Shown here: positions 1 to 35,355 of the stretch, one piece after another
Layout: each line of letters starts with the position of its first letter
Position numbering within the stretch: the first letter of the stretch is position 1
Position numbers and translations under genes: made by a program
The notes under the pieces: model-generated
Database searches by the model: none
What the model was told of the DNA's origin: nothing
Seen by the model: the letters and a program-made list of their open reading frames with translations, nothing else
DNA from: Spirochaetota bacterium
Lineage (GTDB): Bacteria > Spirochaetota > UBA4802 > UBA5550
Direction of reading: 5' to 3'
NCBI GenBank assembly: GCA_035400945.1
Contig: DAONAJ010000010.1
Coordinates: 1,840 to 65,839 of the forward strand
Length of the DNA: 64,000 nucleotides

Positions 1-1038
1 TGTTGAACCCCGGCTGGATGCGCGCGTCCCAGAAGGGGATCGGAAAGCCCGCCTGCAGGCGCGAGATCACGTAAAAGTGGTGGTAGAAATAGGGCGAGTA
101 ATAACCGGGCATGACGCCGTAATCCTGGGGATAGCCGCCGATCTGCTCGGTGTTGTTCCGGTCCACGCCGATAAAATATCCTCCGTATAGGTCAAGCAGT
201 ATGTTGTAATCGCCCTTGAAGTTGTAATAGCCGCCGGCGTTGAAATAGAACCGGTGCGTGTTCCTGATGCTGGATTTGTACCAGATGCCCTCAGTGTGTC
301 CGGTCGGCGGGACCCATGTGTTGCCCAGCTTTTCCCTGAAAAAGAGACGGTCGTAGTCATACCAGGTGCCGTATCCGACCCGCCGCGCGTAATTGTATTC
401 AAGGCGGACCATGTAGCCGTGTTTGACGCGTTCCATGCTTTTATCCTTGACGTCGCTCAACAGGACCTCGATGCCCGGCTTGAGCTGCCAGTGCCGATGC
501 GGCACGTTGACGTACTTGTGCTCGTTGGGCGTCAATAACGGCAGGCGGTAGAAGAAGTAGGAGGGATGGAAGAACACCCTGGTAGAAAATATGCGGAACC
601 AGTTGTACTGGAAGAATCCGCCGACGCCGAAATTGTTTCCCCCGATGGAGCGCCGCCTGTCGTCATATCCCTGCTTGTAGGACCTCCAGGCCGCATAGAT
701 CGAATGTTCCAGCAGGGGTTTGACGCCGGCGAAGATGCGGTCCGTCTTGTAGCCAAGGATCGCGAATATTCTCGTCGTGGTCAATGTGAACTGGGCGTAG
801 AGGTCGGGGTTCTTGAAGTTTTCGCCGAACCAGTAGTAGGCTATGAGGGGCGACAGGTCGTTGCTGTCACCGGGAAAGGGCTGATCAACGCCAAGGGCGA
901 GATAATGCCGGTATTCCTGTTTTTTTTGCGCGGGGTCAGGTCGTCAATGGCAGGCTCCGTCAGGTCCTGCCCCAGCACTGACATGGCAAAAAACAGGCAC
1001 AGACAAAAACAGCAGATAGGCATCAATCTCCGTTTCAT
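1..1038 (-). pseudogene. Outer-membrane beta-barrel-like protein. The 3' end runs off the left edge. The signal peptide and the mature part are in different frames.
   Basis: ATG at 1038 gives MKRRLMPICCFCLCLFFAMSVLGQD, a classic signal peptide; that frame stops at 841. By manual translation, a second frame opens just upstream of the A8 run (920-927) and stays open to position 1. It reads ...KKQEYRHYLALGVDQPFPGDSNDLSPLIAYYWFGENFKNPDLYAQF...GYYNFKGDYNILLDLYGGYF..., which has the aromatic/Gly-rich composition typical of barrel proteins. Confidence 0.55.
920..927. repeat. T8 (A8 on the coding strand) homopolymer at the frame junction of the OMP gene
   Basis: Read directly: cctg-tttttttt-gcg. One extra A, or a -1 slip on A_AAA_AAA_C, joins the signal peptide frame to the long downstream frame. 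Confidence 0.9.
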
Positions 1039-1365
1039 GGGCAACCTCTGCGCGGTGATATTGTGATAATGTATTCTCACCCTCGTTTATTTTCGTTTCT
1101 TGTCTCTGAATATTTATTTTAATAACTGCGAAGTGCCCATGGTAAGACCATGAAAACGATGCGACGGATCGACCCCCTGGCGCGGGCCATCATCAACATA
1201 ACCATAACCTTCATCCGATCTTTAACAGAATGCCCGAAGGACCAGTCGGCAGTCTCCTGTTTGCCAGCCAGTCCATGAATCGCGTAACCCTTTCCCCCTC
1301 TATATCTCCGAGGCAGGTTGCGCTTCGACGAAGTCATTGGTCCAGAACTGCCGCCACAGCGAGTA

Positions 1366-1425
1366 AACAGTATTCGAACCAGGTTATCGATGATATCCCG
1401 GTGGATTTTATGATATGGGTGACAG
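1366..1425. repeat. Partial (right-arm only) copy of the TA-cassette repeat
   Basis: cagtattcgaaccaggttatcgatgatatcccggtggattttatgatatgg aligns with 2152-2196 and 3050-3094. Confidence 0.75.
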
Positions 1426-1437
1426 GACAGTAGTTTT

Positions 1438-1659
1438 TTAGCTTTCAGCCTGTCTTTTTTTCTTCTTTTCCCGCAAAACAATAGCATGAAGGTCTTTAAG
1501 GCCCATTACCATGGCTGTTTTTAACACATTTTGATATCCCATCCCCATGAATCGATCCAGGTCATGCGCGTCCTCGTAGGCTTCGTGAGTGATGTTCATG
1601 GTGATTCTCTTGGTTTTTGCTTTATAAACTTTCTTTTTCTTGTCTGCTTTCATCATCAT
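1438..1659 (-). CDS. Putative RHH/CopG-like antitoxin (cassette 1)
   Basis: 73 aa. A basic N-terminus is followed by KRITMNITHEAYEDAHDLDRFMGMGYQNVLKTAMVMGL (strand-helix-helix pattern). It lies immediately downstream of a toxin-like ORF, and its three start ATGs overlap three TGAs of the upstream frame. Confidence 0.35.
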   Translation of the reverse strand: MMMKADKKKKVYKAKTKRITMNITHEAYEDAHDLDRFMGMGYQNVLKTAMVMGLKDLHAIVLREKKKKRQAES

Positions 1660-1892
1660 GCCGGATAAGTCGGTTTTATCGTAATATGATGCATCGATAG
1701 TTGAAGTTTGACGGCTATAAACAACGAGTATATGCTTGCCTCCGCATTTCCCGAAATAGAGGTCAATGTCTTCATCCCTCGTGCTCGGATAAATAACAAC
1801 ATCAACTTCTTTGTTGAGGATCGATTTATAGATTCCTTGGTAAATTTGCGTTCCTCGAGTCTATTCAGACTATGCTTTGAAAAATTGTGCAT
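1656..1892 (-). pseudogene. DUF4258-like toxin, apparently frameshifted (cassette 1)
   Basis: The N-terminus MHNFSKHSLNRLEERKFTKES resembles the DUF4258 H-x-x-x-R-x-x-eR motif. The rest of the expected domain (IYKSILNKEVDVVIYPSTRDEDIDLYFGKCGGKHILVVYSRQTSTIDASYY) is only seen in a different frame, by manual translation. Confidence 0.35.
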
Positions 1893-2001
1893 ACATATAA
1901 TATATGAATGATGTATGTTAGTGTCAATTACTATTTCAATGATGGAAATGGGGGATGGTTGGTTGATTTATGCTATTAGAGTATACTTATCGAGAAATTC
2001 T

Positions 2002-2196
2002 GAAGTTCGAGTCTTATCGTAATGCTACGGGAATACAGTATTCGAACAGAATATTTTGGCTTTAATTGCTGCAATAATGGTCTGAAAATATAAAAAAGGC
2101 GCTTCCCGGAGTCCGAAAAGCGCCCATGCTCCCACGGGAAGTCAGTATTCGAACCAGCTCATAGATGATATCATGCTGGATCTCATGATTTGGATG
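2002..2196. repeat. TA-cassette repeat copy 1. It contains T-arm-like motifs, a terminator hairpin (2092-2124, minus sense) and a degenerate tRNA-Asn 3' end.
   Basis: Aligns over its length with 2905-3094, and over about 130 bp with 3924-4059. It contains gcgcccatgctcccacggg...tcgaacc, compared with gcgcccatgctcccccggtaggactcgaacc in the genuine tRNA. Confidence 0.85.
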
Positions 2197-2226
2197 GCAG
2201 AACGAAAGCTATATGTTTAATTCAAA

Positions 2227-2550
2227 TCAGGCTTCACAGCAGACATTGGCCAGAGGCTTGACTCGAGGTTTATGCTGTTTGGCCTCCCATAGAGAAAGTC
2301 TATTTTGCATTTCCAGCCAGCTCTCCGGAGTAGTGCCGGTGGCTTCGCCTATCCTTACCGCCATTTCGGGCGTTAGTACACAATGACCATGCACCAGCTC
2401 CGATAGGGTTTTCCTGGATATTCCCATACACTCAGAAGCCTTAGTGATAGTCAGATTAAGAGGCTTGATAACATCTTCAAGAAGCACGATCCCCGGATGG
2501 ACAGGTTTTCTTTTTGTTATATTCATGATGTTAATCCTTGTTGAGTTCAA
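2227..2550 (-). CDS. higA: HigA-type antitoxin (XRE-family HTH)
   Basis: PVHPGIVLLEDVIKPLNLTITKASECMGISRKTLSELVHGHCVLTPEMAVRIGEATGTTPESWLEMQ matches the HigA/VapI antidote pattern. It overlaps the higB stop by 4 nt. Confidence 0.85.
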   Translation of the reverse strand: MNSTRINIMNITKRKPVHPGIVLLEDVIKPLNLTITKASECMGISRKTLSELVHGHCVLTPEMAVRIGEATGTTPESWLEMQNRLSLWEAKQHKPRVKPLANVCCEA

Positions 2551-2825
2551 TGATAATCAATGTAATCAACGACTATTGCATCTTTACCCTCAAATTTAAA
2601 TGTTATTCTCCAGTTGCCGCTAACGCTTACTGCCCAGGTCCTAGCCTTATTGCCAGTTAGTTCATGCAATTTATAGCCCGGCAGGTTCATGTCTTTGGGT
2701 TTTTTAGCTGCTGCCAGCCTGTCCAGAATACGTTCGAGTTTAGATGCATGATCGGGCTGGATTCCTTTTTTGCTGCCAGTATCAAAGAATTGCTCCAGCC
2801 CTTTGTGTTTAAAACTCTTTATCAC
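2547..2825 (-). CDS. higB: HigB-type toxin (plasmid maintenance system killer / RelE superfamily)
   Basis: MIKSFKHKGLEQFF...LPGYKLHELTGNKARTWAVSVSGNWRITFKFEGKDAIVVDYIDYH is the typical HigB sequence, including the C-terminal DYxDYH. Confidence 0.85.
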   Translation of the reverse strand: MIKSFKHKGLEQFFDTGSKKGIQPDHASKLERILDRLAAAKKPKDMNLPGYKLHELTGNKARTWAVSVSGNWRITFKFEGKDAIVVDYIDYH

Positions 2826-2833
2826 AGAACCAA

Positions 2834-2852
2834 TGTAACCCCAAGGGTTACA
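2834..2852. promoter_or_regulatory. Perfect 8-bp inverted repeat 9 nt upstream of higB; candidate HigA operator
   Basis: TGTAACCC-caa-GGGTTACA, read directly. Confidence 0.5.
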
Positions 2853-2904
2853 ATAATCAAGAGAAAAATCTAGATTTCTTTAAATTATGAAAAGTGCAGG
2901 TTGT

Positions 2905-3094
2905 GAAGTTCGAGTCTTATCGTAATGCCATAGGAAGACAGTATTCGAACCGGCTATTTTGACTATAATTGGTTCAATATGGTCGGAAAATAAAAAGGCG
3001 CTTCCCGGAGTTCGAAAAGCGCCCATGCTCCCACGGGAGTACAGTTATCGAACCAGGTTATTGATGATATCCTGCTGGATTTCATGATTTGGAT
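2905..3094. repeat. TA-cassette repeat copy 2 (terminator hairpin 2992-3023, minus sense)
   Basis: Same architecture and high identity to 2002-2196. Confidence 0.85.
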
Positions 3095-3113
3095 AGGGGA
3101 AGTATGGTAATCA

Positions 3114-3539
3114 TCAATTATGCGCTATCGTATGTATCCTTTTCTTCAACTTCTTATATGAGCTTTCATTGTCCCTGACTGGAAATCTGTGCTTCCCGAC
3201 ATACACATATGATATTTTACCTTCATCCATCATCTGGTGCACCCGTTGTCTGGTCACCGAAAGCTTCTTTGCAACCGTATCAACATCAATGAGGTCAGAG
3301 GCAACGATGCGTTTTGAGTCCTGGCGCGCTTTTTCATCGGTCAGCTTTGATGTTATTAATTTGGTCGATCTTATGCTGAACATTCCTTCGCCACAGGAAG
3401 AACAGAAATATCCATCAAGATTGGTGACGGTTATTGGCTCATATCCGTGATTTCTATATGTTTCCGAGATCCCTTTTTTATATTTCATGGTTCCTTTCGA
3501 TCCGCACGATGGGCAATCAATCCATTTTTTTTCTTTCAT
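3114..3539 (-). CDS. mqsA: MqsA-like antitoxin (YgiT-type zinc ribbon plus C-terminal HTH)
   Basis: CPSCGS...CSSCGE zinc ribbon. The C-terminal VAKKLSVTRQRVHQMMDEGKISYVYVGKHRF is an excisionase/MerR-like HTH. It lies directly downstream of mqsR. Confidence 0.7.
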   Translation of the reverse strand: MKEKKWIDCPSCGSKGTMKYKKGISETYRNHGYEPITVTNLDGYFCSSCGEGMFSIRSTKLITSKLTDEKARQDSKRIVASDLIDVDTVAKKLSVTRQRVHQMMDEGKISYVYVGKHRFPVRDNESSYKKLKKRIHTIAHN

Positions 3540-3540
3540 T

Positions 3541-3843
3541 TTATTTCTCCTTGAACGAAATTATCACCGTTTCATCATCAAGAATTTGCAGTTTAATGTA
3601 AGCTATTCTGGTAATAATCTTTTTGTGATAAACGTCCTGCCACAAGGTTGTATCAAAACGGCTCGTCATTGACTTGTATAAATCCGATGCTTCAAGCCTG
3701 AGCACCCATTCGGCAAGTTCTTCTGATAATAGTGAAAAATCCTCAAATGCGCTTTTTATAGCTGTAGCGGTAATGCGATATCGGCCCTCTTTGACCAGGG
3801 TCTTTACTCGTAACAGCGAATAATGCGCTTTAAATTTATCCAT
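3541..3843 (-). CDS. mqsR: MqsR-type toxin
   Basis: SDLYKSMTSRFDTTLWQDVYHKK...YIKLQILDDETVIISFKEK closely parallels E. coli MqsR (SDFYKSMTT..DHTIWQDVY...LIVSFKEK). Confidence 0.85.
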   Translation of the reverse strand: MDKFKAHYSLLRVKTLVKEGRYRITATAIKSAFEDFSLLSEELAEWVLRLEASDLYKSMTSRFDTTLWQDVYHKKIITRIAYIKLQILDDETVIISFKEK

Positions 3844-3923
3844 TTTTAATATCTTTACAATGTCAAGTTATTAAAAATATAGGGAAGGGTCAAGAATAAA
3901 ATGGTCAATAGGAAGGTCTTAAA

Positions 3924-4059
3924 GAAGTTCGAGTCCTATCGTAAAGCTACGGGAATACAGTAATCGAACTGAAGATTTTATCTGTAATTGCTACAATAAT
4001 GACCGGAAAATAATAAAAAGGCGCTTCCCGAAGTTCGAAAAGCGCCCATGCTCCCCCGG
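3924..4059. repeat. TA-cassette repeat copy 3. This is the master copy, and its right end is the genuine tRNA-Asn 3' end.
   Basis: It shares about 130 bp with copies 1 and 2, up to gcgcccatgctccc. Beyond that point it continues as an intact tRNA. Confidence 0.85.
4015..4046 (-). terminator. Rho-independent terminator of tRNA-Asn
   Basis: On the minus strand: GGCGCTT-ttcgaacttcggg-AAGCGCC followed by a T-run. The same hairpin recurs in repeat copies 1 and 2. Confidence 0.75.
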
Positions 4060-4123
4060 TAGGACTCGAACCTACGACCCAGTGGTTAACAGCCACTTGC
4101 TCTACCGACTGAGCTACAGGGGA
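4051..4123 (-). tRNA. tRNA-Asn (anticodon GTT), 73 nt, CCA not encoded
   Basis: Reverse complement TCCCCTGTAGCTCAGTCGGTAGAGCAAGTGGCTGTTAACCACTGGGTCGTAGGTTCGAGTCCTACCGGGGGAG folds as a cloverleaf with anticodon loop CTGTTAA. Confidence 0.9.
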
Positions 4124-4369
4124 ATGTTCAAATCTATCACCGATAAGTTTTCGGACTTTCCCGGCAAGTCACCGGTGATTCAATTCATTGGTTAATAGAT
4201 TATGTACCATGATAGTGTCAATTATTTTTTAGTAAAATTTTGAGATTTCATTCATTTTTATCTTGATTAAATATTATGTCCCGACAAATATACTTTATAA
4301 AAGAACAATCAGTCAGATCATGGCTCCTTCGGCCGGCGGCAGTAGGAGCCATATCGTATACAAGGGGAC

Positions 4370-5272
4370 ATGGATATTACACAGGAAATCAAGAGGCTGG
4401 CAAGGGATAAGAACGCGATTATCCTCGCCCACAATTACCAGATTGACGAGATACAGGATATTGCCGATTTCAGCGGCGATTCCCTTGAGCTTTCACAGAT
4501 CGCGGCTAAAAACGACGCTGCCATGATCGTTTTCTGCGGGGTCCACTTCATGGCTGAATCCGCCTCGATACTGTCCCCTCAGAAGAAAGTCATCATACCG
4601 GACCCCACTGCCGGGTGCCCCATGGCGGACATGGTGGAGGCGGAGGATGTCATTGACCTCAAAAAGCAGCATCCAGGCGCCATGGTCATCACGTACATCA
4701 ATTCCACGGCCGCGGTGAAGGCCCACTCGGATGTGATCTGCACGTCATCGAATGCCCTCAGGATCGTGGAGAGAGTCGATGCAGATGAGATAATCTTCCT
4801 GCCCGACAGGAATCTCGGCAGCTACGTTCAGCGTTTCACGAAAAAGAAGATAATACTCTGGAAGGGCTTTTGCCCGACCCATGAAAAATTCACGCCGGAG
4901 GAGCTCCGGGCCGTCCGGGAGAAGAATCCCGGGGCCGTGGTCATGGTGCATCCCGAGTGCAGGCCCGAGGTCATAGACCTGGCGGACGAGGTCCTGTCAA
5001 CGGGACAGATGGTGAATTTCGTCCAGAAAACCGATAAAAGAAAAATCATCGTGGGCACGGAAATCGGGATGATACACAAGCTGAAATGCGTTGCCCCACA
5101 TATCGAATACATACCGGCGTCGGCCTCATTTATATGCCCCAACATGAAAAAAACAAACCTGCAGGTCCTTCTGAATGCGCTCCAGAAAGAGGAAACCGTG
5201 GTTTCAGTCGCTCAGGATATACGCGACAGGGCGAAGAAGGCCCTTGACCGGATGCTCGAGCTATCATATTGA
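4370..5272 (+). CDS. nadA: Quinolinate synthase A
   Basis: NAIILAHNYQIDEIQDIADFSGDSLELS, VHFMAE, YINSTA and HPEC motifs. Confidence 0.9.
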   Translation: MDITQEIKRLARDKNAIILAHNYQIDEIQDIADFSGDSLELSQIAAKNDAAMIVFCGVHFMAESASILSPQKKVIIPDPTAGCPMADMVEAEDVIDLKKQHPGAMVITYINSTAAVKAHSDVICTSSNALRIVERVDADEIIFLPDRNLGSYVQRFTKKKIILWKGFCPTHEKFTPEELRAVREKNPGAVVMVHPECRPEVIDLADEVLSTGQMVNFVQKTDKRKIIVGTEIGMIHKLKCVAPHIEYIPASASFICPNMKKTNLQVLLNALQKEETVVSVAQDIRDRAKKALDRMLELSY

Positions 5273-5284
5273 CAGGATATATAC

Positions 5285-6547
5285 ATGACCGATCCCATGC
5301 CGCAGGAAAGAATCGATACAGAAAGCATGATGGACGAAGATGCCGGACGTATCCCGCCTCCTACGACGGACCTCGGGTCTCCGGCACAATCAGCCGCAGA
5401 ATCCTTCGAGGAGGACACGAGAAAACAGCTCAACCTCCTGAGGGAAAAAACCTTCAACCCGGAGCTCCGGCAACTCGTTGACAGGGTGAGGGACAATGAG
5501 CCGGCGCAGGGCACCTTTGATAACGAGCAGGAGCGGATTGATGCCGTCTCGGAAGATGAGCTGCGGTTGAGGCTGTACCGGCTCTATTACCGGGCGCGGA
5601 TTCTCCATGACAACCGCGAGATGAACGTGGCCTTTAATCCCTTTGAGGCCATGGACAGCTCTTCTCCGGTGTCCATCCATGATTCGCTCTCCGTGTATAT
5701 CATGGACCGCATGATGCAGATGTCCCTGTCTCCCTTCGCGCTGCTGTCCTACAGCATAATCGAGAAAGGATACATCCCCTCGGTACATAACCTTGAGCGG
5801 TACCAAGTGGAAAATATCGTTATCGGACTGCGGGACAGGCTGTTCAGGGCAATCCTGGGAAGCGATGAGGGAGTGATAATCGAAGCTGATGAGCTTCAGG
5901 ATGATCCGTTCATGAGAAAGATATTTTCCCTTCATGAAGGCGAGGACCCGCGGGCCCTCTATTTTGTCTTGCTCAGCTGCCTTTCATCCGGCATAGCCCG
6001 GGAGTTCCAGGACCAAAACAGCGATGCCATAACACCGTTCCTCCCCTCGGCGATACTCATGATTGAGCTTCCCCTGCAGACAGAACCGCATAACAGGGGT
6101 TCCATATTCAGCATGCTCCGGAAAAGGCTGGCCCTGCCGTTTTTCCTGCTCAATGACCATCAGTCTCTGGTGTTCATGACCGAAGGTTATGAAGACATGG
6201 ACTATTCGTATCATGTCATGGATTATTTGTTCACGGTTTTTTTACTCGCCCGGGACGGTATCGGCATAAGCATAAAATTGAAGTCAAAGGACGAAACCAG
6301 CAGGACTTTTCTCATGAAATACATACTATCACAGCTGAGCTACAAGCTCCATGCTGACTCTGTCCTGCTGCATATGATAAAAGGACATCTTATTATTCTG
6401 ACCAGGGAAGGCTTCGTTGATCTGATAAAATCCTTGATCGGCGAGTACAATAGGCTTTTCAACGATCAATTCTCTGTCGTTGAGTTCAAGCCCTCGGAAT
6501 TCAAAGATTCCCTGGAAGTTATCAATAGAATTATTCTGGGCAATTGA
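5285..6547 (+). CDS. Hypothetical protein, 420 aa
   Basis: Long ORF with coding-like composition and an acidic/Pro-rich N-terminus. I recognise no family. The C-terminal LHADSVLLHMIKGHLIILTREGF faintly recalls a degenerate GGDEF strand. Confidence 0.5.
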   Translation: MTDPMPQERIDTESMMDEDAGRIPPPTTDLGSPAQSAAESFEEDTRKQLNLLREKTFNPELRQLVDRVRDNEPAQGTFDNEQERIDAVSEDELRLRLYRLYYRARILHDNREMNVAFNPFEAMDSSSPVSIHDSLSVYIMDRMMQMSLSPFALLSYSIIEKGYIPSVHNLERYQVENIVIGLRDRLFRAILGSDEGVIIEADELQDDPFMRKIFSLHEGEDPRALYFVLLSCLSSGIAREFQDQNSDAITPFLPSAILMIELPLQTEPHNRGSIFSMLRKRLALPFFLLNDHQSLVFMTEGYEDMDYSYHVMDYLFTVFLLARDGIGISIKLKSKDETSRTFLMKYILSQLSYKLHADSVLLHMIKGHLIILTREGFVDLIKSLIGEYNRLFNDQFSVVEFKPSEFKDSLEVINRIILGN

Positions 6548-7832: not shown

Positions 7833-8526
7833 CGGAAGAAAAAACGGCCAGCTGCGCGACATCAGGATAACCGTAGATTTCTGTCCCGCGGCCTGCGGCT
7901 CCGTGCTTCTCGAGCTGGGGAACACCAGGGTTATTTGCGCTGCCAGCGTGGGCGACAACGTCCCCGACCATGCCGTAAAATGGGGGACCGGGTGGATTAC
8001 GGCGGAATATTCCCTGCTTCCCTATTCGACGCCGCAGCGCACGGGTAGGGATCTCTATCGGCGAGACGGGCGTTCCGTTGAAATACAGCGCCTGATTGCC
8101 CGGGCGCTGCGGAGCGTTGTCGACCTTTCCGCGCTGCAGAACTGCCTTGTCACCGTGGATTGCGATGTCCTGCAGGCGGACGGGGGAACGCGCACGGCCG
8201 CCATTACCGGAGGATATATAGCCCTGGCACGGGCGGTGAACCGCATGCGCGGAGAAGGTCTGGTGGCCGCTAGCCCCCTCCGGGGAGCCGTGGCAGCCGT
8301 TTCAGTCGGCTATGTCGGCGGGGACCTGTATCTTGACCTGGATTTCAGGGAGGATTCCCGCGCCGAGGTAGACATGAACGTGGTCATGGACGGCGCATCT
8401 AACATCATCGAGGTGCAGGGAACGGCGGAAAAAAAATCCTTTACGAAGAAACAGCTGGATTCAATGATTGAGATGGCCGAGAAGGGAATCCATGAGCTCA
8501 TGGAGATCCAGAAGTCTTATATCTGA
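7822..8526 (+). CDS. rph: Ribonuclease PH
   Basis: MRDSGRKNGQLRDIRIT...GSVLLELGNTRVICAASV...CDVLQADGGTRTAAITGG. The start is set at the internal ATG of the 7759 ORF. Confidence 0.9.
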   Translation: MRDSGRKNGQLRDIRITVDFCPAACGSVLLELGNTRVICAASVGDNVPDHAVKWGTGWITAEYSLLPYSTPQRTGRDLYRRDGRSVEIQRLIARALRSVVDLSALQNCLVTVDCDVLQADGGTRTAAITGGYIALARAVNRMRGEGLVAASPLRGAVAAVSVGYVGGDLYLDLDFREDSRAEVDMNVVMDGASNIIEVQGTAEKKSFTKKQLDSMIEMAEKGIHELMEIQKSYI

Positions 8527-8532
8527 AACAAG

Positions 8533-8991
8533 GTGCGTATGAAATATTTCAAACTGTTGCCGGCATTGCTCATGGTCATCATCGCGGCCCTGCCCGTTGC
8601 CGGCATTGAAACCTATAAAATAATTATTGTCAATACAAAGGGAGTCCCGGTGCCGCTCCAGGTGGAACTGGCGGACACGGAGCCTCTGAGGATGAAGGGC
8701 CTCATGGGGCGAAAAACCATGAGAGAAGACAGGGGCATGCTCTTTGTCTTTGACCGGGAACAGAAGATGAACTTCTGGATGAAAAACACCTATATACCGC
8801 TGAGTATCGCCTATATAAACAAAATCGGCGTGATAAACGAGATAAGGGATATGAAGCCACTGGACACATCCGTGACCTATCCCTCGGCCATGCCGGCGCT
8901 CTACGCCCTGGAAGTCAACCAGGGCTGGTTTGCCAGGAACAATATAACGAAAGGCTGCAGAATCGTTCTCGATGGATGCGTCAGTAAATAG
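8533..8991 (+). CDS. DUF192 family protein (secreted)
   Basis: MKGLMGRKTMREDRGMLFVF...MNFWMKNTYIPLSIAYI...ALEVNQGWF. The start is either GTG at 8533 or ATG at 8539. Confidence 0.7.
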   Translation: MRMKYFKLLPALLMVIIAALPVAGIETYKIIIVNTKGVPVPLQVELADTEPLRMKGLMGRKTMREDRGMLFVFDREQKMNFWMKNTYIPLSIAYINKIGVINEIRDMKPLDTSVTYPSAMPALYALEVNQGWFARNNITKGCRIVLDGCVSK

Positions 8992-10141
8992 GATCCCTTC
9001 TTCAAAGGATGAGCGGGCGCTGATCCTGGGCATCCGCCTCCACGGGGCCGATGAGGAAGAACTCGAAAATTCCCTCGATGAACTGGAACTCCTGGTGCGA
9101 ACCGCCGGCGCCATCGTCGTGACCAAGCAGATCATCAAGCGCGACCGCATTGACCCTGCCTATATCATAGGCAAGGGGTTCCTCGCCGAACTGGACGGCA
9201 TAATTGCCGGACACAGGATTCGGCTGGTGGTTTTTGACCTCAATAATATCCGTCCCGCCCAGGTGCGGAACCTCGAGGACAGGCTGAAATGCCGCGTCAT
9301 CGGCAGGAATGAAATCATCATGGACATTTTCGCCCGCAGGGCCCGGAGCGCGGAATCCAGGATACAGGTGGAACTGGCCCAGCTCAAGTATATCCTGCCG
9401 CGTCTCAAGGGCCTCGGCGGGGTGCTGTCCCGGCTGGGCGGCGGCATCGGCACGCGGGGGCCCGGCGAAAAGATGTTGGAAACCGACCGGCGCCATATCC
9501 TGAGAAGGATATCGACCCTGAACGCCAAGCTGGAAAAGATATCGAAGCACCGCGATGTCCTGCGCAAGAGCCGGCGCAGCGAATTGATCGGCGCCGTGGT
9601 CGGCTACACCAACGCCGGGAAGTCAACGGTGATAAACTTTCTCGCCCGCGACGATCTGTTCGTCGAGGACCGCCTGTTCGCGACCCTTGATTCCTACACC
9701 CGGGCCGTGTATCTCGCCGAGGGAAAGAAGTGCCTGCTCATCGACACCGTCGGCTTCATCCGGAACCTGCCGGCGAACCTCATTGAATCATTCAAATCGA
9801 CCCTCGAGGAGATCCATAATGCCGATTTCCTGGTGCATGTCATAGATATATCATCCCATGACATCGGTTCCAATATCCGCACCGTAAACCAGGAAATATC
9901 CGGGCTCGGCTGCGCCGGCAAGGAGATCATACTGTTCTTCAACAAGGCGGACCTCCTGGCGGACGAGGCGCTGGCCAACAGCGTGAAAAACAACTACCCC
10001 GGCGCGATCGTCGGGTCAGCGGTCCGCGGCATCGGCATGGATGAATTGAAGGGCAGGATCATCGAGCTCCTTGACGGCCGTGATTCCAGGATGCATCACG
10101 GAGCTTCCCCGTCGGCATCCGCCCACACTGAAGGAGTGTAA
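8972..10141 (+). CDS. hflX: GTPase HflX
   Basis: HflX N-domain (ELAQLKYILPRLKG...GPGEKMLETDRR) and G-domain (GYTNAGKST, DTVGF, NKAD). Confidence 0.9.
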   Translation: MDASVNRIPSSKDERALILGIRLHGADEEELENSLDELELLVRTAGAIVVTKQIIKRDRIDPAYIIGKGFLAELDGIIAGHRIRLVVFDLNNIRPAQVRNLEDRLKCRVIGRNEIIMDIFARRARSAESRIQVELAQLKYILPRLKGLGGVLSRLGGGIGTRGPGEKMLETDRRHILRRISTLNAKLEKISKHRDVLRKSRRSELIGAVVGYTNAGKSTVINFLARDDLFVEDRLFATLDSYTRAVYLAEGKKCLLIDTVGFIRNLPANLIESFKSTLEEIHNADFLVHVIDISSHDIGSNIRTVNQEISGLGCAGKEIILFFNKADLLADEALANSVKNNYPGAIVGSAVRGIGMDELKGRIIELLDGRDSRMHHGASPSASAHTEGV

Positions 10142-34461: not shown

Positions 34462-35355
34462 GTGAAAGAAGTTCAAGCAATCAATCGGTTCAAAAGGTTT
34501 CTTCAAGTTGAGAAGGGGCTGTCGGAAAATTCAATTTATTCTTATACGTATGATTTAAAAAAATTCAGTGATTTTCTGTCATCCAACAACAAGGATATCC
34601 TCTCGGCAACACAGGAGGACGTCCAGCAATTCCTGAATTTTGAAAAAACAAAAAAGAAAAATTCGACACGCACCCTGGCAAGATCTCTTGCCGCAATCCG
34701 GCAGTTCTATAACTTCATCTCCGACAAGTTCGATGAAATCGACAACCCGACGACAAAGATTGAGTCGCCCCATGTCGAGAAGACCCTGCCTGATTTCCTG
34801 AATATTCAGGAAGTAAACACTCTTTTCAGCTCGATTTCCGAAAACGACGTGTATGAACTGCGAGACAAGACGATCTTCGAGCTTTTATATTCATGCGGTC
34901 TCCGTATAAGCGAGGCAATAGAAATCCTCCACAACCAGGTTGATTTCGAAAATTCTCTCATACGCGTCATCGGGAAGGGGAACAAGGAGCGCCTGGCGCC
35001 CATAGGTGATGAGGCCAAGCGTCTATTGAAGAAGTACCTCCAGGAATCCAGGCCCGATATCTGCGGGAAGAGGGAAAGCGAATACCTGTTCATCAGCAAG
35101 AAGGGCTCAAAGCTCAACAGGAAGAGCGTATGGCGGCTGCTGAAGAACTATGTTGCACGGACCAGGATAAAGAAGAACATTACGCCCCATACACTCCGTC
35201 ACTCCTTCGCCACACATCTCATCGAGAACGGCGCTGACCTCAGGTCAGTTCAGGAACTTCTGGGACATATGGACATATCCACTACGCAGGTATACACTCA
35301 CCTCGCGAAGAGAAAATTACAGGATATACACAAGAAGCATCATCCCAAAGGCTGA
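34462..35355 (+). CDS. xerD: XerC/XerD-family tyrosine recombinase
   Basis: LLYSCGLRISE, HTLRHSFATHL and LGHMDISTTQVYTHL catalytic motifs. GTG start. Confidence 0.85.
   Translation: MKEVQAINRFKRFLQVEKGLSENSIYSYTYDLKKFSDFLSSNNKDILSATQEDVQQFLNFEKTKKKNSTRTLARSLAAIRQFYNFISDKFDEIDNPTTKIESPHVEKTLPDFLNIQEVNTLFSSISENDVYELRDKTIFELLYSCGLRISEAIEILHNQVDFENSLIRVIGKGNKERLAPIGDEAKRLLKKYLQESRPDICGKRESEYLFISKKGSKLNRKSVWRLLKNYVARTRIKKNITPHTLRHSFATHLIENGADLRSVQELLGHMDISTTQVYTHLAKRKLQDIHKKHHPKG

Follow-up and report, generated by a model that had tools for sequence, protein, structure and literature searches.

Integration into tRNA genes splits the SSV-type archaeal integrases, and in the integration-dependent immunity of mycobacteriophages attP lies within the repressor gene, whose product loses a C-terminal tag. 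The tycheposons and tRNA-flanked island arrays of Prochlorococcus are places where mobile elements and cargo remnants with partial tRNA repeats pile up at tRNA genes. Composite islands of the staphylococcal cassette chromosome (SCC) type are known from staphylococci (see also PMC6222049), site-specific accretion of cis-mobilizable elements (CIMEs) is described for ICESt1/ICESt3 of Streptococcus thermophilus (PMC5704250), and integrons with toxin-antitoxin (TA) cassettes are known in Treponema (PMC4909258). Here we describe a locus in a 64,000-nucleotide stretch of a Spirochaetota bacterium (the window; GenBank assembly GCA_035400945.1, contig DAONAJ010000010.1, positions 1,840 to 65,839), where three TA cassettes lie in tandem downstream of a tRNA-Asn(GTT) gene. 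We think it likely that the locus is an accretion array of recombinase-less TA mini-cassettes at the attachment (att) site of a tRNA-targeting large serine recombinase (LSR).

The array is on the same strand as tRNA-Asn, and downstream of the tRNA the order is MqsRA, HigBA and a degraded BrnT-like pair. Every cassette lies between copies of a short core, encodes a TA pair only and is 0.7-0.9 kb long. The G+C content of the region is 36-44% compared with ~55% in the flanks. From the tRNA outward the features are:

4050-4123, minus strand: tRNA-Asn(GTT) (ARAGORN; Rfam RF00005, 70.7 bits)
within 4050-4123, minus strand: B half-site of the attachment site, made up of the T-arm and the acceptor 3' strand of tRNA-Asn
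4049-4055, minus strand: copy of the crossover core GGGAGCA in which the 3' end of the tRNA meets the P' side of the MqsRA cassette
4020-4047, minus strand: P' hairpin and intrinsic terminator of the MqsRA cassette, with a 13-bp stem containing the conserved TTCGAAC; it now terminates the tRNA
3922-4019, minus strand: distal arm of the MqsRA cassette, with the distal site (3927-3970) inside it (repeat families and inverted repeat)
3541-3843, minus strand: MqsR toxin gene (PF15723, E=8.6e-24)
3114-3539, minus strand: MqsA antitoxin gene (PF15731, E=6e-8)
3027-3110, plus strand: proximal arm of the MqsRA cassette, with the P half-site at 3034-3054 and the antisense LSR-tail open reading frame (ORF) APTGVQLSNQVIDDILLDFMIWIGEVW followed by a stop
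3026-3032, minus strand: crossover core GGGAGCA at the MqsRA/HigBA junction (string search and junction alignment)
2997-3024, minus strand: P' hairpin and terminator of the HigBA cassette (terminator prediction)
2903-2996, minus strand: distal arm of the HigBA cassette, with the distal site at 2908-2951
2547-2825, minus strand: HigB (RelE-like) toxin gene (PF05015, E=9.5e-22)
2227-2550, minus strand: HigA-like helix-turn-helix (HTH) antitoxin gene (PF01381, E=8e-5)
2128-2220, plus strand: proximal arm of the HigBA cassette, with the P half-site at 2135-2155 and the tail ORF APTGSQYSNQLIDDIMLDLMIWMAERKLYV followed by a stop
2127-2133, minus strand: crossover core GGGAGCA at the junction of HigBA and cassette 3 (string search and junction alignment)
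2098-2125, minus strand: P' hairpin and terminator of cassette 3 (terminator prediction)
2000-2097, minus strand: distal arm of cassette 3, with the distal site at 2005-2048
1438-1927, minus strand: degraded BrnT/DUF4258-like TA cassette (cassette 3), with no Pfam match and with deletions relative to intact homologues
1927-1899, minus strand: promoter-like site of cassette 3, TTGACA-17-TATATT
1656-1892, minus strand: frameshifted toxin remnant of cassette 3 (comparison with intact homologues)
1438-1659, minus strand: N-terminally truncated partner in cassette 3 (comparison with intact homologues)
1360-1433, plus strand: terminal proximal arm of cassette 3, with the tail ORF ..SKQYSNQVIDDIPVDFMIWVTGQ followed by a stop; the core has decayed and lacks GGGAGCA

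In both MqsRA and HigBA the toxin gene comes first, and both pairs score above the Pfam thresholds as type II TA modules. The likely start of the HigA-like antitoxin is the ATG at 2526, which gives 99 amino acids and matches the gene calls in public assemblies. The initial annotation, made from the sequence alone, had anchored the array on tRNA-Asn(GTT), and both ARAGORN and Rfam agree. It had further counted three toxin-first TA modules; Pfam upholds HigBA and MqsRA, while the third (1438-1892) is decayed, with no significant Pfam match for the window copy. A repeat was said to bracket each module, and repeat searches with a four-way alignment place the copies within a few bases of the positions given at that time.

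The repeat is ~200 nt long, and its four copies, R1 (1360-1433, arm only), R2 (~2000-2205), R3 (~2903-3104) and R4 (3922-4059, fused to the tRNA), are 85-90% identical (85-88% among the inner copies). R1 is the oldest junction and faces the chromosomal flank. Read in tRNA sense, an inner copy consists of a ~70-nt proximal arm ending CTGGTTCGAATACTGnCTTCCCG, K-GGGAGCA (where K is G or T), a 28-nt G+C hairpin with a T-run, and a ~95-nt distal arm; in R4 the tRNA body replaces the proximal arm. The P half-site in the proximal arm is GGTTCGAATACTGTCTTCCCG. The inner repeats match the tRNA over 7-11 nt only, so that the recombination sites are not tRNA-derived, as had been supposed, beyond this core; they are attP sites lying inside the 3' end of an LSR gene. 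The 23-nt terminator/core string occurs three times against 0 expected and nowhere else in the 64-kb window. A permissive Rfam scan of positions 1-6000 returned the tRNA only, and no known RNA family explains the repeat.

Related loci (L numbers) were collected in two scans: a one-genome-per-species scan with the arm pattern gave six loci in five Spirochaetota metagenome-assembled genomes (MAGs), and a metagenome scan with the P half-site plus the core gave ten more, making 16 further loci in total. All of the matches are arrays or island ends of the same att type, which, with the lack of copies elsewhere in the 64 kb, disposes of the idea that the repeat is a generic dispersed element of the repetitive extragenic palindrome or miniature inverted-repeat type.

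Three strong intrinsic terminators with stems of 12-13 bp are predicted, one in each of the repeat copies that carry the hairpin. The hairpin AAAGCAACG..GTTGCTTTTTTT is the native terminator of tRNA-Asn, since it follows the intact tRNA-Asn in L026; it is also found at the array ends in L025, L032 and L038. It differs from the one in the window, where the terminator and the distal arm beside the tRNA are cassette-borne and foreign to the tRNA. The rightmost repeat copy is therefore fused to the genuine tRNA 3' end, as the initial annotation had it, but not to the tRNA's own terminator, and each cassette has a terminator of its own rather than a copy of that of the tRNA.

At ~25 junctions from the window and the related loci the arm runs up to ..CTTCCCG-K, followed by GGGAGCA and then by sequence set by the next, older element. 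To the right of GGGAGCA three types of sequence are found: a TA-type hairpin (TGGGCGCTTTTCGAACTCCGGGAAGCGCC), an LSR-type hairpin (GGATAGGACGTTTTCGAAC..) and, at array ends, the native terminator. The K base follows the arm-side cassette, being T in 4/4 MqsRA copies and G in both MazEF copies. Since K tracks the arm-side cassette and the rightward sequence tracks the next element, the crossover falls within GGGAGCA. The array ends of L025, L032 and L038, which read arm, core and native tRNA terminator, are what is expected of the attR left by a first integration into a pristine attB.

The P' hairpin at 4020-4047 is homologous to the LSR-type P' hairpin (z up to 7.8). TTCGAAC is kept in the P' hairpins despite compensatory changes in the stem, which suggests that it is a recognition element; GTTCGAA...TTCGAAC flank the core at 47 bp in attP and at 39 bp in the tRNA plus P'. 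The distal site (3927-3970, 2908-2951 and 2005-2048) holds a second copy of the P half-site together with an inverted tRNA T-arm-like sequence, GTTCGAGTCCTATCG. Its column identity of 0.91-0.98 equals that of the crossover core, and it is missing from inverted cassettes. An origin of the distal arm in the 3' coding part of the LSR gene was considered and rejected, as only the ~40-nt hairpin is homologous and the rest is unconvincing.

Exact copies of NadA (window 4370-5272) and of the 65-amino acid ORF to the left of the array were looked up in public contigs. This gave >20 contigs of the same species, with the three-cassette array identical in every one; in L002 and L004 it is identical to the window over 4.4 kb and NadA is 100% identical. 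The contig ena:ERZ22666056:k127_25692206 (L001, L011, L040) has the same three cassettes plus a 37.4-kb island between the tRNA and MqsR, and because the island contigs carry a NadA 100% identical to that of the window, the two provide a natural empty/occupied pair for the island. The tRNA-side junction reads tRNA..CCTACCGGGGGAGCA/GGATAGGACGTTTTCGAACTCTCGAGAACGTCCTTTTTG, with the recombinase gene converging on the tRNA; about the core (tRNA..CCGGGGGAGCA/GGATAGGACG) the island P' hairpin follows and then the LSR gene. The far junction, ..CCATCCAGATCATGAAATCCAGCAGGATATCATCGACAACCTGGTTCGAATACTGTCTTCCCGGGGGAGCA/TGGGCGC.., continues into the R4 of the window, with the proximal arm of the island and ..TCTTCCCGGGGGAGCA on its island side. 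What the two junctions have in common with the empty site is limited to CCGGGGGAGCA (7-11 bp), and a long target duplication is absent. The island is thus inserted precisely at the tRNA 3' end, and it bears the same proximal arm as the TA cassettes.

These junctions bear on the proposal that homologous recombination between the ~200-nt repeats, through RecA or natural transformation, shaped the array and that the TA units had no dedicated recombinase. The repeats are long and similar enough for this, short core-less junctions in several arrays resemble deletions between the two direct 21-nt copies of the P half-site, and there is some mosaicism of P half-site variants between cassette types. 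The island junctions are, however, precise at an 11-bp shared core with flanks of insufficient homology, the breakpoint has the same position in ~25 junctions, and the array ends consist of the exact displaced tRNA 3' bases followed by the native terminator. As a sole explanation it is very unlikely; homologous recombination between repeats probably contributes, without explaining the fixed breakpoint.

Two LSR genes of the island stand next to the tRNA (L001 8046-9743 and 6143-7717), each encoding Resolvase (PF00239), Recombinase (PF07508) and Zn-ribbon (PF13408) domains, and the proteins are mutually only 22% identical. The ORF of the tRNA-adjacent LSR (8046-9743) crosses the P' hairpin and the core into tRNA antisense. 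Among its homologues (P numbers; 52-93% identity) P0001, P0002 and P0007 have as their end ..APPVGLEPTTQWLTATCSTD, which is tRNA-Asn read in antisense, and P0003 abuts tRNA-Asn beside nadA in another genome (L028). In L029 it is tRNA-Trp that P0008 (52% identity) abuts, and this protein shares with P0009 (53%) a different tRNA-derived tail. The Asn and Trp tails thus fall out by LSR lineage, that is, recombinase lineage co-varies with target tRNA. The initial annotation had found no integrase nearby, which is correct for the window, but an LSR exists in sister strains on an island abutting the tRNA. The attB is the tRNA-Asn 3' end, and the cognate attP lies inside the 3' end of the LSR gene of this island family.

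The island carries a type-3-like bacteriophage exclusion (BREX) set (BrxF, BrxC/PglY, PglXI, BrxHI, PglZ and BrxA; L040 1013-15612), and further encodes GmrSD-like, WYL, SSB and UDG proteins, an Fpg-like glycosylase and the product of a candidate defence gene, PDC-S19. Of the 37 kb of the island ~27 kb were seen, and these contain no tyrosine recombinase. Viral contigs gave 0 matches to the P half-site, and the islands were not recognised as phages. Upstream of each island LSR gene lie a small ORF and a motif common to both genes, TTGCCGCAATTGCGGnATnGCGGTA (L001 5860-5900 and 7800-7850). Such ORFs lie at L001 5917-6159 and 7861-8046, at L028 9811-10011 and at L029 9834-9995, and the one before the tRNA-adjacent LSR type is kept in both the Asn and the Trp systems (..IDTxTRxFYIxxxLxIYYLLNE) and may act as a directionality factor or regulator. 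Another large island ending in the same proximal arm (L036, reversed) contains at 8069-9180 an IS3-like two-ORF transposase, recognised by eye from its translation.

The type of recombinase also decides on an integron-type or Xer-exploiting system, in which an IntI elsewhere in the genome or the XerC/D-like enzyme at 34462-35355 would move the cassettes. The head-to-tail, single-operon and TA-rich cassettes do recall sedentary chromosomal integrons and clusters of attC sites lacking integron-integrases (CALINs), the 7-bp identity core has the size of a tyrosine-recombinase overlap region, and a Xer-like gene is present in the window. Against this, where recombinase genes lie physically on the att site they are serine recombinases in 5/5 independent contexts, with ORFs crossing the core. 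An attC-like fold was looked for in the 215-nt repeat as single-stranded DNA on both strands and was rejected, since separate local hairpins formed (z=-2.2 and -1.6); the repeat ends, ..GACTCGAACTTC and CCATCCAAATC.., show no R'' (RYYYAAC) or R' (GTTRRRY) consensus, and the only Rfam match is to the tRNA. The XerC/D-like gene is the only tyrosine recombinase among the window ORFs examined, and it lies 30 kb away in a housekeeping context, which bears out its earlier description as ordinary. We regard such a system as extremely improbable. What remains of the integron- or CALIN-like character first proposed is the logic of the array; attC structure and recombinase type do not agree with it.

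The proximal arm itself behaves as coding sequence. The antisense of 24 proximal arms encodes a conserved LSR C-terminal tail, ...QYSNQVIDDILLDFMIW..., in a frame that is open in 23/24; the translations read P(T/P)GRQYSNQ(V/L)(I/V)DDILLDFMIW.., with a stop 2-10 codons further on. The ~45-nt shared arm of the initial annotation is present, and in addition behaves as coding sequence for this tail. Minor alleles number 35, 13 and 64 at codon positions 1, 2 and 3, and this frame has a synonymous fraction of 0.37, compared with 0.21 and 0.15 in the other two frames. This coding-type pattern of substitution is kept even within one cassette type.

Several junctions show the frame in its LSR context. 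The C-terminal remnant of an LSR in L022 extends across P', the core and the entire arm, with its stop at the arm edge, and the attP reconstructed for the BREX island is in frame (..SYPAPP/GRQYSNQVVDDILLDFMIWMVGSDKNP, then a stop). P0010, a Trp-type LSR with a cassette on its tRNA side, ends ..SAGEMGLKLLDTSLMNVIIWFKE.., the attP-form tail being LLDTSLMNVIIW; at the protein level this tail shares with the Asn-type tail the pattern hydrophobic-hydrophobic-D-x-x-L-...-I-W, at ~56% DNA identity. The two arm copies on the P0010 contig (L027) overlap over ~41 nt and differ there only synonymously. The P' hairpin of the TA type is also still in the LSR frame (GASRSSKSAHAPTG versus DVLESSKTSYPAPPG in the LSR). 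Tail readthrough, open frames and in-frame P' together place attP inside the LSR 3' end, each TA cassette carrying the whole attP segment. An LSR beside the tRNA ends in a tRNA-antisense tail (..VGLEPTTQWLTATCSTD), and in the attP form, or with a cassette on the tRNA side, in the ..QYSNQVIDDILLDFMIW.. tail. Integration hence swaps the last ~25-30 residues of the LSR, and any role of this tail is presumptive. An AlphaFold2 model of P0010 had a confident LSR fold and a tail with pLDDT of 35-51, which is uninformative on tail docking.

About ten other Spirochaetota contigs combine these att sites with permuted and different cargo. Among the related arrays the cargo comprises MqsRA, HigB(PF05015)/HTH, HigB(PF09907)/HTH, a BrnT/DUF4258-like pair, MazEF and HepT/MNT; the MazEF and HepT/MNT cassettes are both inverted and without the distal arm. 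In the sister system at tRNA-Trp a PIN/VapBC-like cassette is arranged in the same way. Outward from the tRNA, the order is Mqs, Hig1, Brn in the window; Hig1, Mqs, LSR remnant in L022 and L024; Brn, Mqs, MazEF, Hig2 in L026; and Mqs, Brn, Hig2 in L037. The cassette next to the tRNA is HepT/MNT in L039, and in L001 that place is taken by the BREX island. Deletions from a single ancestral order cannot produce such permutations. Between the window and L026 the cassettes are 87-91% identical (MqsRA 89.3%, non-coding parts included), whereas nadA is 75.7% identical and the spacer between tRNA and nadA cannot be aligned. Variation of cassette content in relatives, which had been named as a check, is found between species, where order and cargo differ, and not within the species, where the array is fixed across >20 contigs. 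The serial, site-specific capture of recombinase-less TA cassettes at the tRNA-Asn 3' end first suggested for this locus is supported by the empty/occupied pair and by the permuted arrays.

A different origin would be reductive decay: the cassettes would be remnants of full-size LSR islands (CIMEs in the strict sense), reduced to a TA pair and att ends and never mobile on their own. LSR remnants are in fact embedded in arrays, as a ~76-amino acid C-terminal fragment in L022, L031 and L034 and as a decayed LSR-type P' in L024, and the in-frame LSR 3' codons in the cassette P' hairpin indicate that the att module descends from an LSR gene. Moreover cassette 3 is visibly degrading, the array is fixed within the species, and a three-step route to CIMEs has been described (PMC5704250). 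Yet each cassette type reappears in different genomes with equally sharp boundaries and equal size but in permuted order (Mqs-Hig1 and Hig1-Mqs; Brn-Mqs and Mqs-Brn), and with identical cassette ends across genomes independent deletions are an unlikely source. The cassettes are also far more alike between genomes than host genes are, the arm keeps its coding-type substitution pattern within one cassette type, and a TA pair lies next to the proximal arm in 0 of the large islands seen. Decay may be the origin of the cassette att module; as an account of the cassettes themselves we consider it unlikely.

The degradation of cassette 3 can be followed against the intact homologues in L026 and L037, relative to which the toxin gene has a 1-nt deletion and a 79-nt deletion spans the toxin-antitoxin boundary. 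The intact toxin homologue matches BrnT/DUF4258 weakly (E=1.4e-3, below threshold). Decay of both the outermost cassette and the terminal junction fits a gradient of age away from the tRNA. In L022 (5990-6193), L031 and L034 the MqsR ORF is cut to 67 amino acids (100 in the window) and MqsA is intact, which suggests toxin inactivation in older cassettes.

The anatomy of the sites, the island insertion pair, the diversity of the arrays and the arm's coding signature are shown by the sequences; the scheme that we favour, that of an accretion array built by an LSR, runs as follows. Each TA module is a miniature recombinase-less element with a complete attP of the island LSR family. On one side of the cassette the proximal arm supplies the P half-site and, in antisense, the last ~25 LSR codons; on the other side stand the core and the P' hairpin, doubling as an intrinsic terminator and regenerating a terminated tRNA. 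The cassettes, presumably as circles, would be integrated in trans by the LSR at the tRNA-proximal junction, and for this reason the newest element would lie beside the tRNA, with older ones pushed outward and decaying. The cassette-borne P' side would act as an acceptable equivalent of B' for the next event, as it must do, since the BREX island demonstrably integrated into the tRNA plus the P' of MqsRA, a hybrid site that is thereby shown to be used. Catalysis by the LSR, circular intermediates and mobilisation in trans are postulates of the scheme. The TA cargo probably makes the array more stable through addiction, contributes abortive-infection defence at a defence-island hotspot, or does both.

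Several points weigh against this scheme. The window encodes no LSR, and tblastn of both LSRs against the whole of it matched the tRNA-encoded tail only. Some 10.7 kb of the island lie outside the part seen, and another recombinase may be present there. The ungapped dyad symmetry of the reconstructed attP, attB and distal site is not above that of shuffles: the best LSR attP centre, GGGG/G/AGCA, has 14/24 matches compared with 12 +/- 1 (max 15) in shuffles, and the TA attPs have 11/24. The strongly conserved distal site has no role in the LSR model. As the array is invariant within the species and only the 37-kb island varies, the present-day mobility of single cassettes is inferred from comparison between species. 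Repeated integration would require that the hybrid site of tRNA and P', which is attL-like, behave as an attB. Canonical LSRs recombine attP with attB, not attP with attL. Lastly, LSRs that target and regenerate tRNA 3' ends are atypical, and serine-recombinase elements are described as integrating inside genes (PMC5704250).

In a bolder reading, possible though doubtful, the arrays would be the serine-recombinase counterpart of the integron, with a tRNA-anchored capture platform, the tail swap as a built-in switch and the distal site as a second functional recombination or regulatory site. If so, the complete attP in every cassette would include the last, exon-like coding segment of the recombinase, each integration would rewrite the C-terminus of the neighbouring LSR with a tRNA-encoded or cassette-encoded (..DDILLDFMIW..) tail, and the swap would control the activity, stability or directionality of the recombinase. 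A switch of this kind would explain the coding constraint on the tail in recombinase-less TA cassettes.

As to the likely accretion array itself, the integron principle of mini-cassettes, one recombination site in each, stacked at a platform would have evolved independently with an LSR and a tRNA gene as platform. The array would also be a clear example of LSRs that target tRNA 3' ends and regenerate them, which is usually regarded as the niche of tyrosine integrases. That integration state and neighbouring cassettes appear to set the LSR C-terminus offers a candidate control mechanism for directionality, which is of practical interest since LSRs are tools of genome engineering. The tRNA-Asn locus of these anaerobic-digester and sewage Spirochaetota would be a defence hotspot at which BREX islands and TA cassettes share one integration machinery.

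Some further observations concern single loci. L023 and L026 both belong to MAG MFD04716.bin.2.40, and each is an att-type array with a MazEF cassette; either one genome has two arrays or the bin mixes strains. Recent intragenomic transposition of MazEF between them was considered and rejected, the 90.8% identity showing that they are not recent duplicates. In L026, positions 3319-3899 hold ~7.4 tandem 78-nt units directly upstream of the genuine tRNA-Asn, each unit comprising the first ~24 nt of tRNA-Asn and an altered anticodon-arm-like segment, with no tRNA call by ARAGORN or Rfam. At 3950-4316 of the same locus a 95-amino acid GIY-YIG nuclease ORF (PF01541, E=4e-18) has on one side the intact tRNA-Asn, followed by the native terminator, and on the other a second, diverged copy (~45 nt) of the 3' half of the tRNA, from which the sequence passes into the TA array; the arrangement resembles a small insertion of another kind into this tRNA. 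In all public assemblies the gene to the left of the window array is present as two ORFs on the minus strand (784-1038), a 65-amino acid signal-peptide-like one (841-1038) and a 356-amino acid body from 784, split near a T-run at ~921-929; it could be a frameshifted or phase-variable outer-membrane protein gene.

In the literature found, in which subscription journals are largely uncovered, there was no account of LSR-built TA cassette arrays at tRNA genes and none of an attP inside an LSR gene, which is weak evidence of absence. The comparison with described systems can nevertheless be drawn closely. The domains of an LSR integrative element are present in L001, L028 and L029, where the recombinase is next to the att site, and not in the window itself; a short identity core without long target duplication is characteristic of such elements and is found here. 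Here, as in SCC, psi-SCC and the Enterococcus cassette chromosome (CcrAB/CcrC), an LSR has the 3' end of a conserved gene as its integration target, and recombinase-less elements lie in tandem between att cores, movable in trans in principle; the tandem pair of LSR genes in the BREX island recalls ccrAB. SCC is, however, targeted by Ccr to the 3' end of rlmH (orfX), and the target here is tRNA-Asn, so that the array is not an SCC. SCC units are multi-kb islands, whereas ours are single TA operons of ~0.8 kb; the repeat is ~200 nt long and includes the 3' coding end of the recombinase itself, the hosts are environmental Spirochaetota, and the LSRs are unrelated in detail (relatedness to Ccr being judged on shared Pfam domains only).

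With CIMEs the cassettes have in common that they are flanked by attL/attR-type sites and contain no integration or transfer genes, and no conjugation genes were seen; the L001/L011 configuration is an accretion of the kind described for ICESt1/ICESt3. CIMEs depend on tyrosine integrases and are decay products of integrative and conjugative or integrative and mobilizable elements, while a serine recombinase is found here and the units are uniform, permuted across genomes and equipped with a constrained att/tail module. As to descent by decay, LSR codons are in frame in the P' hairpin, yet boundaries are uniform and cassettes permuted. With SSV-type integrases and mycobacteriophage immunity the locus may be likened in that integration would alter the product of the gene spanning attP; those are tyrosine recombinases, whereas the LSR domains here stay intact, only the tail being swapped, and third-party cassettes can supply it. 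Tycheposons, by analogy, would share hotspot arrays at tRNA genes with this locus, but have different recombinases, larger heterogeneous units, no shared 200-nt att/tail module and no TA specialisation.

Integrons and CALINs resemble the array in their co-oriented mini-cassettes, each with cargo plus one recombination site, in having the newest cassette nearest the platform, in the prominence of TA modules and in arrays without a linked recombinase gene. They differ in that the present locus has no IntI, attI, attC fold or R''/R' motifs and has double-strand LSR-type att sites instead; its cassettes carry their own terminator, cassette 3 has a promoter-like site, and some cassettes are inverted. 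Functionally the array is integron/CALIN-like and akin to SCC/psi-SCC and CIME accretion, with the defining features of none of these.

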